Shown: one piece after another, positions 4,531 through 11,069 of the stretch
How the letters are laid out: each line of letters begins with the position of its first letter
Numbering within the stretch: the stretch's first letter is position 1
Source: Candidatus Fervidifonticultor quintus
Lineage (GTDB): Bacteria > Sysuimicrobiota > Sysuimicrobiia > Sysuimicrobiales > Humicultoraceae
DNA length: 35,707 nucleotides
Direction: 5' to 3'
NCBI GenBank assembly: GCA_031459535.1
Contig: JAVKIJ010000027.1
Coordinates: 1 to 35,707 of the forward strand
Translations under genes and position numbers: made by a program
The notes under the pieces: model-generated
Databases searched by the model: none
What the model was told of the DNA's origin: nothing
The model's input: the letters and a program-made list of their open reading frames with translations, nothing else

Positions 4531-4559
4531 ATTATAGGAATCGCCCCTGGCAGCGTCAA
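4531..4559 (-). promoter_or_regulatory. Housekeeping (sigma70/SigA-type) promoter of sigH
   Basis: TTGACG-N17-TATAAT; the -35 overlaps the TGA stop of the upstream gene. Confidence 0.8.
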
Positions 4560-5926
4560 GGCACGGCCCGACGATCAGACACCTGACGCGGCGCCGCGCC
4601 GGTCCCGACCACGACCGTCTGCGGCACCGGCTGGTAGTAGTTCAGCGCGACAACCTCCCGGCGGACCACCACCCCGTCCTGCCGGACGACGCGCACCGTA
4701 CGGGACCGCAGGCCAGTACGCGGGGGCTCCACCCGCATCTGACCCGCTGGCAACTGGGGGTCGTGCCTGACCACGGTGTGGGTCGGCGCCGGCAGCACCA
4801 CCTGGTCGGTAACCGCGATGGTCACCTCACGGCCGGGCAGCCGCGGCCCGAAGATCGTCACCGTCACCGACGTGGGACCGACCTCGGTCCACAGATAGAG
4901 GTGCGACCCGGTGGTGTTGCGCAGCCGGAGGTCGATCGACCCGTACTCCACGGTGGCGTCGCGGCCGGCGGCCAGGTACGGGACCGGCCGCGAGTGATTG
5001 GTCCGGCGCTCCACGGCCATCTCGGCCAGCACGGCCGCGTTGAAGAGGGTGGAGGAGACCTGGCAGACACCTCCGCCGTCGCCTGGGACCAGTTCGTTGT
5101 TGATCAGCACCGGCGCCTTGCGATACCCCACCTTCGGATTCCGTGGACCGACCACCGCGTTGTACGAGAGCACGGCGCCCGGGGGCAGCAGCAGACCCCT
5201 CAGCGCCGAGGCGGCCAAGCGGATGTTGTGGACCCGATCCGGTGAGGGCGGAAACCACGTGGTGAAGCGGGCGACTGGCTCGGCCATACGGGCTGCCACC
5301 TCGGTGGTCAATCCCGGACGGCGGGACTGCACCGCAAGGGCCACCCGCGGCTGCCCGGACACCAGGGCGGCAATGACCCGGATCGCAGAGGCGGCCTCGT
5401 CCACGACCACGCCGTCCCGGCTGGGACTGACCACGACCAGACGCCCCCTGACCACGGCGACCTGAGCGTCGCGGGGCTCCACCAGCAGCGCGCCCGTGGC
5501 GGCGTGCACGGCGGCCCTCGCGGCGTGGACATCGTAGCGGTAGACAACCGGCAGACGGATGGGCCGGAGGCGCATGGCCACCCGGGTCCAGGCCCGTCGC
5601 ACCGGGCCTCCCTCGCGACCGGCAGCCATCGCCGCGCGTATGGTGCGGTTTATCTCGACGCCCAAGCCCAGCGCCTGGGCCGGCAGTGCGGCGATGGGGG
5701 TGACGGCGTCCAGCCAGAGGGAGCGCTGCAGCCGTGCCTGGGCCATCGCCTCGATCCTGGCGACCAGTTCGCTGGCGCTCAGCCCGCCGACATCCAACCC
5801 CTCGACCTGCACGCCAGGGAGCACGCGGCCGTGGTAGGCGCGGTCGATCGCCACCGTCCACCCCGCAGCGACGCCGACCGCCCCCAGGAGCAGGCCGAGC
5901 GCGGCCAGGCGCGGCGGGCGTCTCAC
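4556..5926 (-). CDS. VanW-family membrane-anchored protein (YoaR-like; putative PG-binding region, VanW domain, G5-like C-terminus)
   Basis: N-terminal TM; RVHNIRLA, SYNAVVGPR, GGGVCQVSSTLFNA, HS...Y...GRDATV, DLRLRN. GTG start overlaps the rlmB stop (GTGA). Confidence 0.88.
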   Translation of the reverse strand: MRRPPRLAALGLLLGAVGVAAGWTVAIDRAYHGRVLPGVQVEGLDVGGLSASELVARIEAMAQARLQRSLWLDAVTPIAALPAQALGLGVEINRTIRAAMAAGREGGPVRRAWTRVAMRLRPIRLPVVYRYDVHAARAAVHAATGALLVEPRDAQVAVVRGRLVVVSPSRDGVVVDEAASAIRVIAALVSGQPRVALAVQSRRPGLTTEVAARMAEPVARFTTWFPPSPDRVHNIRLAASALRGLLLPPGAVLSYNAVVGPRNPKVGYRKAPVLINNELVPGDGGGVCQVSSTLFNAAVLAEMAVERRTNHSRPVPYLAAGRDATVEYGSIDLRLRNTTGSHLYLWTEVGPTSVTVTIFGPRLPGREVTIAVTDQVVLPAPTHTVVRHDPQLPAGQMRVEPPRTGLRSRTVRVVRQDGVVVRREVVALNYYQPVPQTVVVGTGAAPRQVSDRRAVP

Positions 5927-6714
5927 GGCGACCCCGTCGCTGCGCGCATCTGCCGGCGTACCTCGAACAGGCACAGCGCGGCCGCGACCGACGCGTTGAG
6001 CGACGCGGTGGCGCCATACATGGGGATGCGCACCAGCCGGTCGCATCGCTCGCGGACCAGCCGCGACAACCCGCGGCCCTCGCTCCCGACCACCAGCGCC
6101 ACCGGAGGCAGGAGGCTGACATTGTAGAGGTCGTCGCTCGCCCCGGGATCGGCTCCGATCACCCAGATCCCTTCGGCCTTGAGGCGCTCGATGGCCGCAG
6201 TGAGGTTCGCGACCTGTGCGACGAGGACGTGCTCGATGGCGCCGGCGGACGTGGCGGCCACCGCAGCACTGAGGCCGGCCGCCCGGCGGCGCGGGATGAC
6301 AACCCCATGGACGCCCGCCGCATCCGCCGACCGCAGGATGGCCCCCAGGTTGCCTGGGTCCTCGATCCCGTCCAACATCAGCAGCAGCGGCGCCTCGGCG
6401 CGCCCACGGCTCCTGGCCAGGACATCGTCGAGTTCCACCGTGGCGTGGGCCGCGGCCACAGCGATGATCCCCTGCGGCGTTCGGGTCCTGGCGAGTCGCT
6501 CGAGCACGGCGGCGTCCACTTCCTGCACCGGAATGCCCCGGCGCCGGGCTTCGCCAATCAGGTGACGCAGACCGGCGGTGCGCGCAGCGGTCCGGGCCAC
6601 CAGGAGCTTGCGCAACGGCCGGCCGGCCCGCAGCGCCTCGCGCACAGGGTGCCGGCCCTCGATCTGGGTGTCGGAAATCAGGGACGACCGGGCGTCCGCG
6701 CGGCCAGCCGCCAT
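5923..6714 (-). CDS. rlmB: 23S rRNA (G2251) 2'-O-methyltransferase RlmB (TrmH/SpoU family)
   Basis: IEGRHPVREAL, LDGIEDPGNLGAILRSA, GSEGRGL, RIPMYG..SLNASVA. Confidence 0.93.
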   Translation of the reverse strand: MAAGRADARSSLISDTQIEGRHPVREALRAGRPLRKLLVARTAARTAGLRHLIGEARRRGIPVQEVDAAVLERLARTRTPQGIIAVAAAHATVELDDVLARSRGRAEAPLLLMLDGIEDPGNLGAILRSADAAGVHGVVIPRRRAAGLSAAVAATSAGAIEHVLVAQVANLTAAIERLKAEGIWVIGADPGASDDLYNVSLLPPVALVVGSEGRGLSRLVRERCDRLVRIPMYGATASLNASVAAALCLFEVRRQMRAATGSP

Positions 6715-8207
6715 CGAGAGCCTCCAGGGAGGTCCTCCACGATTATGCCCAGGTCGCCCAACCGGCGGCGGATCGCGTCGGCCACCTCGAACCGCCGGGC
6801 CCGCCGGGCCCGATCGCGTCCGGCCAGCAGCGCGCCCACCACGTCATCCGGGCTGCGAAGGCTGGCGCCGTCTGGGAACAGCGCCGGATCGTCCGCGTGC
6901 AGGGACGCCAGCATGGCCCGCAGCGCCTCGAGGGCCTCGGTCGGCAGGTGGATCGGGGCAGCCAGACGCAGGCCGAGGACGCCGGCCAGGCGCCGGAGCA
7001 TCGCGACGGCAGCAGCCAGACCGCCGGCGGCGCCGTCCTGACCCTGGAGGGCGGCGCTTGAAGCCCGGTTGATTTCCGCGGCGAGGTCGAAGAGGGCGGC
7101 GATGGCCTGCGGTGTCCCGAAATCGGTGTCCATGGCCCGCTCGAAGGCCCCCCGCGCCGCCTCCGCGGCGTCGGCCAGCGGCCCATCTGCCACCAGGCCC
7201 CCGGCCCGAGCCAGCGCCGCCTCAGCGTTCGCCAGGGCCGTGCGCAGTCGCTCGACGCCCCGCGCCGCGGCCCGCACGCCCTCATCCGTCCATCGTAGCG
7301 GGGTCCGGTAGTGAGCGGTCAGGATGAACAGCCGGATCGCATCGGCCTCGTACGCCTCCAGGGCGTCACGAATCGAGATGAAGTTGCCGAGGTGGCGGTG
7401 CATCTCCTCGCCCACCGGGGGCTTCATCAGAGCATTGTGGATCCAGTAGCGCACAAACGGCGTCTTGCCGGTGAAACCCTCGGACTGGGCGATTTCGTTC
7501 TCATGGTGCGGAAACCGCAGATCATCTCCGCCGCCGTGAATGTCGAGTTGCTCCCCCAGGTACTGCATCGCCATGGCCGAGCACTCGATGTGCCACCCGG
7601 GACGGCCCGCACCCCACGGGCTGGGCCAGCTGGGTTCCCCGGGCCTGGCGGCCTTCCACAGCGCGAAGTCCATGGGGTGCTCCTTGCGCTCGTCCACCTC
7701 GATGCGGGCGCCAGCCTGCATCTGCTCCAGCGACCGGCCGGATAGGGCGCCGTAGGCGGGAAAGGAGGTGACCCGGAAGTAGACGTCGCCGTCCACCACG
7801 TATGCATGGCCGCGCGCGATCAGCCCCGTGATGATCTCGATCATCTTGGGGATGACTTCAGTGGCCCGTGGATAGCCGTGCGCGCGTTGGATGTTCAGCG
7901 CATCCATCTCGCGCAGGAAGCGCTCGAGGTACTCCGATGCGATCTCGAAGATACTCCGGCCCTCGCGCTGCGCGCGGTCGAGGATGCGGTCTTCGATGTC
8001 GGTGAAGTTCTGGATGTGGCGGACTTCGTAGCCCCTGTACTCGAGATAGCGTCGGACGACATCGAAGAATGTGTACGACAGCGCGTGGCCCACGTGCGCG
8101 GGCCCGTACAGGTTCGGGCCGCACACGTACATCCGTACCCGACCCGGCTGCAGCGTCTCGAATGGTTCAAGGCGTTTGGTGAGCGAGTTGTAAATCTCTA
8201 GACCCAT
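6678..8207 (-). CDS. cysS: Cysteine--tRNA ligase with atypical KMSKS region
   Basis: MYVCGP..Y..AHVGH, DFALWK, SPWG.GRPGWHIECSAM, DIHGGG.DL.FPHHENEIAQS, DFGTPQA; SD GGGGAG. Confidence 0.95.
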   Translation of the reverse strand: MGLEIYNSLTKRLEPFETLQPGRVRMYVCGPNLYGPAHVGHALSYTFFDVVRRYLEYRGYEVRHIQNFTDIEDRILDRAQREGRSIFEIASEYLERFLREMDALNIQRAHGYPRATEVIPKMIEIITGLIARGHAYVVDGDVYFRVTSFPAYGALSGRSLEQMQAGARIEVDERKEHPMDFALWKAARPGEPSWPSPWGAGRPGWHIECSAMAMQYLGEQLDIHGGGDDLRFPHHENEIAQSEGFTGKTPFVRYWIHNALMKPPVGEEMHRHLGNFISIRDALEAYEADAIRLFILTAHYRTPLRWTDEGVRAAARGVERLRTALANAEAALARAGGLVADGPLADAAEAARGAFERAMDTDFGTPQAIAALFDLAAEINRASSAALQGQDGAAGGLAAAVAMLRRLAGVLGLRLAAPIHLPTEALEALRAMLASLHADDPALFPDGASLRSPDDVVGALLAGRDRARRARRFEVADAIRRRLGDLGIIVEDLPGGSRWRLAARTPGRP

Positions 8208-8746: not shown

Positions 8747-9931
8747 CTAGGCGGTCTTCCTCAGCACGGCCACGGCGTGGGCGGCGATCGCCTCGCTCCG
8801 GCCCACGGCATCCAGGCCCTCGCCCGTCGTGGCCTTGATCCCGACCTGTCCCGGCGTCACCGACAGGGCAGCGGCCAGCCGCTCGCGCATCGCGACAATG
8901 TGGGGCGACAGTCGGGGCGACTGGGCGATGACCACGGCGTCCACATTGGCGACGGCCCACCCGGACGCCCCCAGGTGATCGGCAACCGCCCTCAGCAGGT
9001 GCATGCTGCTGGCACCGCGGTACGCCGGGTCGTCGGGCGGGAAGTGATGGCCGATGTCGCGCTCGCCAGCTGCGCCCAGCAGGGCATCCATGATCGCGTG
9101 GGTCAGGACATCGGCATCGGAGTGCCCGGCCAGGCCCCGCGGATGGGGGATCGTGATCCCTCCGAGCACCAGCGCCCGGTCCGGGACCAGCCGGTGGATG
9201 TCGTAGCCGATGCCCACCCTCACCGGTGGCACCTCAGTGGCCTCCACGAGCCGCCTCGCGACGTCCAGATCGTGCGGCATGGTGATCTTCACGTTCAGTG
9301 GATCCCCCACCACCACCGCAACCTCGTGGCCGATGCGCTCGACGAGTTCGGCATCATCGGTGACCTGTGCGGAGTCCGGTACGACCGCGTGAGCCTCCCG
9401 GATCAGGGCGGCGCGAAACGCCTGCGGCGTCTGGATGGCCCACAGCGCTGTCCGATCCACGGTGCGGGTCACCCGATCCGCCGCGACGTGCTTGAGGGTA
9501 TCGGTCACGGGCAGGCCTGCGGTGGCAGCGCCGGTCGCCTTCGCCCCTTCCAGCACCCGCGCAATGAGCTCGGGCGTCACGAAGGGCCGCACGCCGTCGT
9601 GCACCAGGACCCACCCCACGTCTCCCAGCGCCTCCAGGCCCGCGGCGACCGAGTCGCGACGGGTGCGCCCTCCCGGGACCACGGCGATCATCTTGCGGCA
9701 ACGCATCGCCTGGACCGTGCGGACGAACTCCGGCGCCACGACCACTGCGACATCATCGACGGCCCGGCACCCCTCGAAGACCGCGAGGGTCCGCTCGAGG
9801 ATTGACGAGCCACCCAGTTGGATGAACGGCTTCGGGGTGGCGCCCGTCAATCGCGACCCGGCACCGGCGGCGGCGATGACGGCACCGACTCGGTCCGGGC
9901 TGGGCTGGGGAGCTGGATGGGCCTCGCCCAC
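8747..9931 (-). CDS. ispDF: Bifunctional IspD/IspF (MEP cytidylyltransferase / MEcPP synthase)
   Basis: AAGAGSR, HDGVRP, QTPQAF, TDD, KIT (IspD) fused to GIGYDIHRL, GHSDADV, DIG.HFP, KATTGE (IspF). Start is approximate. Confidence 0.93.
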   Translation of the reverse strand: MGEAHPAPQPSPDRVGAVIAAAGAGSRLTGATPKPFIQLGGSSILERTLAVFEGCRAVDDVAVVVAPEFVRTVQAMRCRKMIAVVPGGRTRRDSVAAGLEALGDVGWVLVHDGVRPFVTPELIARVLEGAKATGAATAGLPVTDTLKHVAADRVTRTVDRTALWAIQTPQAFRAALIREAHAVVPDSAQVTDDAELVERIGHEVAVVVGDPLNVKITMPHDLDVARRLVEATEVPPVRVGIGYDIHRLVPDRALVLGGITIPHPRGLAGHSDADVLTHAIMDALLGAAGERDIGHHFPPDDPAYRGASSMHLLRAVADHLGASGWAVANVDAVVIAQSPRLSPHIVAMRERLAAALSVTPGQVGIKATTGEGLDAVGRSEAIAAHAVAVLRKTA

Positions 9932-9932
9932 G

Positions 9933-11069
9933 CTACCGCCGCTCAACGGCTGGCGGCCCGGCGGGCTCGTTGGACTTGGGACGGGCAAAGATCATGCGGC
10001 CTGCGGACGTCTGGAGCACGCTGGTGACCACCACATCGGAGGTCTCACCGATGAACCGTTTGCCGCCTTCCACCACGATCATCGTGCCGTCCTCCAGATA
10101 GGCCACGCCCTGCCCGGCCTCTTTGCCGTCCCGGATGACGTGCACGCTCAACTCCTCGCCGGGAAGCACCGCGGGCCGCAGCGCCTGGGCCAACTGGTTG
10201 ACGTTCAGCACGCGCACGCCCTGCAGCTCGGCTACCTTGCTGAGGTTGAAGTCGGTGGTCACGATGGACGCATGGTGCGCCCGCGCCAGCGCCACGAGCT
10301 GCGAATCCACATCCAGATCGCCGGCGTCGTCGAGCACTCGCACCGTGGAGAAGTCGCGCTGGAGGCGGTTGAGGATGTCGAGGCCCCGCCGACCCCGGTT
10401 GCGCCGCACCACGTCCGCGGAGTCAGCCACCCGCTGGAGCTCCAGCAGCACCGACCGGGGTACCAGCAGCGGTCCTTCAAGGAATCCGGCCGCGCAGATG
10501 TCGGCGATGCGGCCGTCGATGATCACGCTGGTGTCGAGTAGCTTGGACCCGGCTCCCGCCTCGACGGCGCCGACCCGGGGACGCACGGTGACCCGGGCGA
10601 AGAAACTGGCGACCTCTTCACGCCGCTGCAGCGCCAGGTGGAGGCCCAGGTAGCCGAAGACCAGGCCCGCCACACCGCGGACGTATGGGCCGACCAGGGG
10701 CAACCCGTCCAACAAGCTGCCAACCACGTAGGCCAGCACCAGCCCGCCCGTCAGACCCGCGGCGGCCAGCAACAGGTCGCGTAGCGAGAGCGCGGCCAGG
10801 CCATGGAGTACAGTGGCCATCAGGGCCACGAACCCACGGGCCAAAAGGGGGAGCGCAAGCCAGCCCGCGAGTCCGCCGACGGCCACGCCCACCGCTGCGG
10901 TCACCAGCGTATCGGGAAAGATCGCCGGATTCCAAACGGTGGCCAGTCGGGCGGCCTCATGGCCAGCGATCCCGCCGAGCAATACTCCCGTTCCCCTCAG
11001 CAACCGATTCCGCATTGGAGGTCTGGCAGGCAGTCCCAGCGTCCCGTCCGCGGTCTGCGTACCGTGCAT
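9933..11069 (-). CDS. Membrane PIN/TRAM domain protein (YacL-like)
   Basis: N-terminal TM helices; LLDTSVIIDGRI, RGRRGLDIL, TTDFNL.KVA, GKE.GQGVAYLEDGTMIVVE, QTSAGRMIFA. Confidence 0.92.
   Translation of the reverse strand: MHGTQTADGTLGLPARPPMRNRLLRGTGVLLGGIAGHEAARLATVWNPAIFPDTLVTAAVGVAVGGLAGWLALPLLARGFVALMATVLHGLAALSLRDLLLAAAGLTGGLVLAYVVGSLLDGLPLVGPYVRGVAGLVFGYLGLHLALQRREEVASFFARVTVRPRVGAVEAGAGSKLLDTSVIIDGRIADICAAGFLEGPLLVPRSVLLELQRVADSADVVRRNRGRRGLDILNRLQRDFSTVRVLDDAGDLDVDSQLVALARAHHASIVTTDFNLSKVAELQGVRVLNVNQLAQALRPAVLPGEELSVHVIRDGKEAGQGVAYLEDGTMIVVEGGKRFIGETSDVVVTSVLQTSAGRMIFARPKSNEPAGPPAVERR

Follow-up and report, generated by a model that had tools for sequence, protein, structure and literature searches.

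The window, a stretch of 35,707 nucleotides (contig JAVKIJ010000027.1, assembly GCA_031459535.1) from Candidatus Fervidifonticultor quintus, carries a cysS gene whose product, the cysteinyl-tRNA synthetase (CysRS) P0001, has EMHRH where class I synthetases have their KMSKS signature. Both lysines of the signature are gone, and the second of these is routinely given as an example of a class I catalytic residue. The gene is an orthologous, intact and sole cysS under purifying selection, and the variant loop has become fixed in a clade of family rank. From comparisons of sequence we consider it very probable that P0001 is an active housekeeping CysRS of a hot-spring lineage (NCBI label Armatimonadota) in which the mobile KMSKS loop has been rebuilt, with Arg271 doing the job of the second lysine.

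Identity of the protein and its variant loop

The segment HNALMKPPVGEEMHRHLGNF represents residues 257-276 of the translated protein, and the altered signature is E268-M269-H270-R271-H272. The interval 7370-7445 singled out in the original prediction, which was made from the DNA letters alone, corresponds to residues 255-279. Residue equivalences were taken from a HMMER alignment of P0001 to E. coli CysRS (PDB 1LI5). In this alignment EMHRH stands where KMSKS is expected, in agreement with the predicted loss of both lysines, and C29, C209, H234 and E238 all align with the E. coli zinc ligands of the cysteine-selection site, which had been foreseen as intact; these four residues are invariant in 42 members of the clade. 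The HIGH signature is present as H38-V-G-H41, and the two-lysine KMSKS signature is absent. Membership of P0001 in the CysRS family rests on orthology and on its other features, and the protein is therefore termed a variant.

P0001 scores 464.5 bits with TIGR00435, the NCBIfam equivalog model for cysS (cut-off 340), over residues 3-500. The class I(C) catalytic domain PF01406 (tRNA-synt_1e, 389.7 bits) and the anticodon-binding domains DALR_2 (57 bits) and CysS_C (27.9 bits) all exceed their Pfam cut-offs, and the full-length match to E. coli CysRS, with the zinc ligands and HIGH aligned, is at the 1e-125 level. An AlphaFold2 model built from an alignment of the 42 clade members has a mean predicted local distance difference test score (pLDDT) of 89.2 and a predicted template-modelling score (pTM) of 0.84. 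Its closest match by fold is 1U0B, in which E. coli CysRS is bound to tRNACys, at template-modelling (TM) scores of 0.81/0.89. P0001 shares with canonical bacterial CysRS (E. coli CysS; 1LI5, 1LI7, 1U0B) its domain order, the C/C/H/E set of zinc ligands, the HIGH motif, the anticodon-binding domains and the locus, at 43-44% identity in the fold alignment. Unlike canonical CysRS, it has EMHRH for KMSKS, Asn for the near-invariant Thr of CGxTxY, Arg for K73, Leu for the Arg that follows HIGH, two prolines inserted ahead of the loop, and basic residues gained at 96, 262 and 305. The nearby motifs had also been called deviant. This holds for T32N and K74R, both of them signatures of the clade, and the quoted TDIEDRI motif is found as TDIEDRILD; HVGH, however, is an ordinary HIGH variant. 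The existing source annotation of these proteins is cysteine--tRNA ligase. Annotation pipelines already name the gene correctly, and nothing changes for genome annotation.

Copy number, conservation and rarity

The genome from which the window comes (G000; 3.1 Mb in 138 contigs, 88.9% complete) has no second cysS by protein search or by PF01406 search, the remaining matches being other class I enzymes, and none was found in the EMHRH-bearing genomes searched, so that the search for a second copy proposed in the original prediction came back empty. The best scores in G000 for SepRS (TIGR00470) and SepCysS (TIGR02539) are 36.8 and 30.1 bits, versus cut-offs of 380 and 365. A cysS match was obtained in 40 of 41 genomes (G000 and 40 relatives). 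The exception is G020 (94% complete), in which protein and Pfam searches found no cysS; we read this as a gap. In genome G065 the EMHRH copy stands alone. The unpublished genome G013 is the only one in the phylum sample with an extra cysS-like copy. This divergent gene (contig C14, locus L088; 35-41% identity) has RMSKS, HIGN for HIGH and an insertion after TDV, and the main copy of the same genome is KMTRS, not EMHRH. In the relative G012, a 97% complete genome with an EMHRH-type cysS, a single tRNA-Cys(GCA) was identified; it has U73, and its CCA is encoded. For G000, ARAGORN also called a tRNA-SeC(TCA) and an odd tRNA-His(ATG).

Conservation in relatives, another of the checks proposed at the outset, proved strict. 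The 30 related genomes compared directly comprise 24 with EMHRH, two with KMTRS and four with KMTRH. Residues 268-276 (EMHRHLGNF) are invariant in all 24 EMHRH genomes while seven of the nine codons vary synonymously, and the variant loop is therefore under purifying selection; over the whole CysRS, 175 of 504 positions are invariant in the same genomes. Among the best 120 database matches there are 84 EMHRH, one DMHRH, 19 KMTRH, four KMTRS and five RMTRS proteins, with seven left unclassified by motif pattern. Where the sources are named they are Armatimonadota metagenome-assembled genomes, and one KMTRH protein is labelled Anaerolineae. A back-translated (D/E)MHRHLGN pattern has a single match in each of 36 genomes out of 94 examined for the phylum, namely G000, 28 of the 33 others of its family (f1) and 7 of the 22 of family f2, and the reversed control gives no match in the 94 (the unpublished genome G022 is counted both in the 24 and in the 36). 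The pattern KMTRxLGN matches 28 of the 94. Ten of the remaining 30 genomes, which match neither pattern, were sampled: all five from the f2 genera g22, g26, g27 and g28 have an ordinary KMSKS CysRS with about 50% identity, both from g24 have RMTRS, and the one from g23 has KMTRH followed by LGG; in G023 cysS is split, and G020 has none. Contigs of three hot-spring metagenome DNA runs span the motif without a differing letter.

Among CysRS at large the loop is rare. In a sample of 151 CysRS rows, made of P0001 and its 150 nearest representatives at 50% identity, 143 have a lysine at the second position. The script counts before correction were KMSKS 124, KMAKS 12, RMGKS 3, KASKS 2 and KMGKS 1; two rows were printed one residue out of register and in fact read KMSKS (P0209) and KMAHS (P0161). 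The eight rows without the second lysine are P0001, one KMTRH, one KMARS, four KMAHS and one degenerate sequence (MMLES/HAGY). Among the matches listed from diverse bacterial and archaeal loci, 79 of 80 have the second lysine, and the sole exception is a close relative of G000. The other class I enzymes of G000 keep it too (KMSKS in TyrRS and TrpRS, KFSKS in MetRS, KLSKR in GluRS, EMHKS in IleRS). Full-text searches of an open-access library returned nothing on such a CysRS loop, and the motif strings gave unrelated papers. As far as these searches reach, EMHRH-type and Arg-type CysRS are undescribed.

Three other loops deserve mention. The IleRS of G000 (contig C13, L074:985-4623, plus strand; TIGR00392 over cut-off, MupA/MupB-like type) has EMHKS for KMSKS, that is, Glu for the first Lys and His for the Ser, with the same E-M-H start as in CysRS, and the corresponding MHKSWGN pattern is found in 56 of the 94 genomes of the phylum. 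The CysRS clusters P0136, P0161, P0173 and P0265 have KMAHS, with His for the second Lys, and also carry a HIGH-loop lysine (CGLTPK..H.GH) that is reminiscent of the one said to compensate in ArgRS; one KMAHS CysRS comes from a Chloroflexota metagenome-assembled genome. The CysRS-like protein P0212 has MMLES for KMSKS and HAGY for HIGH, and is possibly an inactive paralogue.

Evolutionary history and coupled substitutions

A maximum-likelihood tree was built from 54 CysRS. Its 35 Arg-type rows all fall into a single group apart from the canonical enzymes, with a Shimodaira-Hasegawa-like approximate likelihood ratio test (SH-aLRT) support of 99, and family f2's KMSKS enzymes cluster with the canonical sequences. 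All 24 EMHRH rows lie in a subclade of 27 rows (support 99), together with two KMTRS rows and one KMTRH row. The EMHRH loop is exactly one residue shorter than that of its KMTR(H/S) sisters, the lysine being absent, and has H for T. The Arg-type sisters of the same phylum (KMTRH, KMTRS, RMTRS) are like P0001 in having Arg at the position of the second lysine, N32, L33, a basic residue 262, R96 and W306. Unlike P0001, they have a basic first residue (K/R), Thr where P0001 has H270, and mostly T305.

Comparison of three protein sets shows that the loop did not change alone (Table 1). R305 is shared by the EMHRH-type proteins and their five nearest KMTR(S/H) sisters, and T305R therefore came before the loss of the first lysine. 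Such ordered substitutions look like a remodelled pocket for the phosphates and the tRNA end, and not like decay, as far as can be judged from the alignments.

Table 1. Residues of P0001, their E. coli CysRS equivalents, and the residues found in 129 canonical, 84 EMHRH-type (EMHRH/DMHRH) and 32 KMTR-type proteins
P0001 position	E. coli	Canonical	Arg-type clade
N32	T31	T (99%)	N in 100% of 116 Arg-type proteins
L33		V	L
L43	R42	basic (K/R) in 92%	basic in 0% of EMHRH-type
R74	K73	K (97%)	R in 100% of EMHRH-type, 75% of KMTR-type
D77	K76
R96		basic in 10%	R in 100%
100		D	E
259		G	A
K262		basic in 12%	K/R in 96% of EMHRH-type, 100% of KMTR-type
P263-P264		absent	two-proline insertion
E268	K266
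M269	M267
H270	S268	S	H (EMHRH-type) or T (KMTR-type)
R271	K269	K	R
H272	S270	S	H
R305		basic in 2%, mostly D/N/E	R in 84/84 EMHRH-type and 5 nearest KMTR(S/H) sisters; T in other 27 KMTR/RMTR
W306		F/Y	W
C29 / C209 / H234 / E238	C28 / C209 / H234 / E238 (zinc ligands)

Base composition forms the background to these changes. G000 has a GC content of 68.7%, and its long open reading frames are extremely depleted in lysine (about 1.2%, versus 11.6% arginine). P0001 itself has 6 Lys and 55 Arg (1.2% and 10.8%), and canonical CysRS representatives average 5.8% Lys and 6.8% Arg. Family f2 holds two unrelated types of cysS, KMSKS (loci L081-L084 and L087) and EMHRH (L024, L026, L028, L029 and L169), the former with about 50% identity and grouping with outside lineages. 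Both occur in genus g22, where G037 and G066 are KMSKS and G065, with its copy on a short contig, is EMHRH. Either xenologous replacement or a binning artefact could account for the two types.

The gene was predicted to sit at the ancestral cysS locus, and this is supported by its neighbours, an ispDF fusion upstream and rlmB downstream (Table 2). The bifunctional ispDF model NF006899 gives 373.6 bits for the fusion, below its cut-off of 417. The start of rlmB and the 3' end of cysS overlap at 6678-6714 on the same strand, which suggests translational coupling. Just downstream of rlmB, an open reading frame of 496 aa at 4556-6046 (minus strand) has a weak match to a VanW-family domain, far below cut-off.

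Table 2. Coordinates in the window of cysS, its motifs and its neighbours
Feature	Position	Strand	Evidence
cysS, cysteine--tRNA ligase, 509 aa	6678..8207	-	open reading frame, TIGR00435, Pfam, fold match
EMHRH, KMSKS equivalent (E. coli K266-S270)	7392..7406	-	alignment, codon conservation
K262, basic residue gained in Arg-type clade, then insertion P263-P264	7422..7424	-	protein-set comparison
C29-G-P-N32-L33-Y (CGPNLY), zinc ligand C29 and T-to-N, V-to-L clade changes	8106..8123	-
H38-V-G-H41 (HIGH motif, intact; HVGH at 8085-8096), then A42-L43	8079..8096	-
T69-D-I-E-D-R74-I-L-D77 = E. coli TDIDDK73IIK76	7977..8003	-	alignment
R305-W306, basic residue gained just ahead of first-Lys loss	7290..7295	-	protein-set comparison
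Zinc ligands C209, H234, E238	7494..7583	-	aligned to E. coli C209/H234/E238
rlmB, downstream neighbour, cysS 3' end overlapped by 37 nt	5923..6714	-	TIGR00186, 224 bits (cut-off 160)
ispDF fusion, upstream neighbour	8747..9988	-	ispD and ispF domain models both over cut-off

Proposed mechanism, competing explanations and consequences

The loop was rebuilt in steps. The Arg-type clade (KMTRH, KMTRS, RMTRS) arose first, with T32N, V33L, a basic residue 262, R96 and W306; T305R followed; finally the codon of the first lysine was lost and T270 was replaced by His, giving (E/D)MHRH. The mutational push would be the strong genome-wide replacement of Lys by Arg at 68.7% GC. In the resulting enzyme Arg271 would take over the contact of the second lysine to the alpha-phosphate of ATP and the pyrophosphate in the transition state, and the first lysine would be dispensable or covered by the gained K262, R305 and R96, any of which may make contacts to the tRNA end or to the pyrophosphate. 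By analogy with Thr40 of TyrRS, T31 of the CGxTxY motif may lie near the pyrophosphate site. According to the text available for LeuRS, that synthetase's second KMSKS lysine touches the phosphate of an adenylate analogue, and its first lysine touches the tRNA at C75 (PMC5059758). Tolerance of changes in the motif has precedents. For E. coli CysRS, the accessible part of the report states that the K266A, K269A and K266/269A mutants kept cell-free protein synthesis (PMC5660078). Excerpts of other papers describe the KMSKS motif as variable across class I (PMC5919687) and KMSK as degenerate in ArgRS (PMC8318970). Such an ArgRS (MSTR-like) belongs to a different synthetase family, but in those excerpts it resembles P0001, as we read the latter, in being a class I enzyme that functions although the canonical lysines are missing, and in having an Arg in the loop (PMC8318970).

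P0001 could also be an active CysRS in which the role of the lost lysines has passed to something other than Arg271, such as K262, R305, R96, the flanking histidines or a bound mono- or divalent cation. Residues K/R262, R96 and R305 are indeed clade-specific gains, K262, one of just six lysines in the protein, persists as AAG or AAA in 23 of 24 genomes, and neither H270 nor H272 varies in the EMHRH set. In human TyrRS, K+ reportedly stands in for the second lysine. However, only Arg271 both occupies the very position of the catalytic lysine and is unchanged in all 116 Arg-type proteins, and K262 is Arg in most KMTRH members and absent from a few EMHRH proteins (HNALVSSP, HNALVMPP). In ArgRS lacking KMSK, a lysine of the HIGH loop is said, in work by Sekine from 2001, to compensate; unlike that case, the HIGH loop of P0001 has gained no lysine, as judged from related genomes. 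Replacement of the lysines by something other than Arg271 thus appears unlikely. Somewhat less likely still is that the change was selected and not merely tolerated, by removing a persulfide reaction that depends on pyridoxal 5'-phosphate (PLP) or by conferring resistance to a natural inhibitor mimicking the aminoacyl-adenylate. All four lysines reported for the PLP site are replaced in P0001, two of them (K73 and K269) being otherwise 97-100% conserved, and a self-immunity LeuRS whose KMSKS motif reads KQSKS offers a parallel in the portion of its report that was available (PMC5059758). Neither a natural inhibitor directed at CysRS, nor a biosynthetic cluster, nor a second, sensitive copy was seen, however; K76 is naturally variable, with Lys in 23 of 80 diverse CysRS among the matches listed; and genome-wide lysine depletion is a simpler, neutral route to K-to-R changes.

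The original prediction had left the choice between an active synthetase managing without the lysines and a paralogue repurposed for another cysteine ligation. The latter, whether a cysteine ligase for a non-tRNA acceptor like MshC or an inactive pseudo-synthetase, is now very improbable. In its favour, both signature lysines are lost, and MshC (cysteine:GlcN-Ins ligase), whose catalytic domain is homologous to that of P0001, gives a partial match with TIGR03447 (286.3 bits). That match is below the cut-off of 485.1 and spans residues 3-388 only; unlike MshC, P0001 has the tRNA anticodon-binding domains DALR_2 and CysS_C, whose residues are invariant in the clade, and its gene is at the orthologous cysS locus, with no other cysS or indirect pathway found in G000 or in near-complete relatives. 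That the motif stems from errors of sequencing or assembly, or that the gene is decaying, can practically be dismissed: nothing was found in support of either, the motif is present in 35 genomes besides G000 with synonymous differences, the contigs of the three runs are identical, and the frame is uninterrupted. An active synthetase is favoured by the sole copy, the locus, the domains, purifying selection and the normal tRNA-Cys of a relative.

Several points nevertheless weigh against an active CysRS relying on Arg271. We infer both the CysRS activity and the role of Arg271 from sequence. The pLDDT falls below 50 only in loop residues 270-274 and the C-terminal tail, and the former are part of the very loop in question. 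ARAGORN found no tRNA-Cys among 43 tRNAs in G000, and blastn with the tRNA-Cys of G012 gave no match there. G000 also lacks Tyr, Phe and several other tRNAs in the ARAGORN output and is 88.9% complete, and we therefore read the absence as an assembly gap; it remains a gap in the case. The three DNA runs may be source samples of the assembly and not independent of it. In the metatranscriptome run X4, which belongs to the same study, contigs span five pieces of the gene, though not 7341-7454, where the motif lies; they are a hint of expression, and DNA carry-over in the RNA library is possible. The free tree needs two to three changes for EMHRH, and a single origin is not rejected (approximately unbiased test, p=0.118). 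Finally, some members of family f2 have a CysRS with ordinary KMSKS, and the variant is therefore not forced by the base composition of the lineage alone.

Available sections of two reports state that PLP binds K73, K76, K266 and K269 of E. coli CysRS, that each K-to-A mutant of these four loses cysteine persulfide synthesis, and that the PLP lysines and the persulfide activity are conserved from bacteria to mammals or across life (PMC5660078, PMC10655014). The PLP-dependent cysteine persulfide synthase CARS/CysRS described there (Akaike 2017, PMC5660078) is of the same enzyme family as P0001; unlike it, P0001 has naturally lost all four lysines, the aligned residues being R74, D77, E268 and R271. 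K73 and K269 are strongly conserved elsewhere, unlike K76. Because none of the four PLP lysines is left, the persulfide side activity of P0001 is probably absent or works differently. We offer only tentatively, as somewhat doubtful, the combined proposal that the lineage translates without both signature lysines by means of a His-Arg-His loop and second-shell changes (T32N, K/R262, R96, T305R) and that its enzyme charges tRNA-Cys but makes no persulfide with PLP.

As the sole CysRS of its genome, with Arg for the second lysine, no first lysine and an ordered series of coupled substitutions, P0001 represents a natural experiment in rebuilding an essential active-site loop, probably driven by strong mutational pressure from Lys to Arg in a thermophile of high GC content. 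If the combined proposal is true, this separation-of-function CysRS would contradict the claimed conservation of the persulfide activity in all organisms and would be a ready-made control enzyme. With the EMHRH CysRS, direct tests become possible both of what the signature lysines do and of the PLP/persulfide claim.

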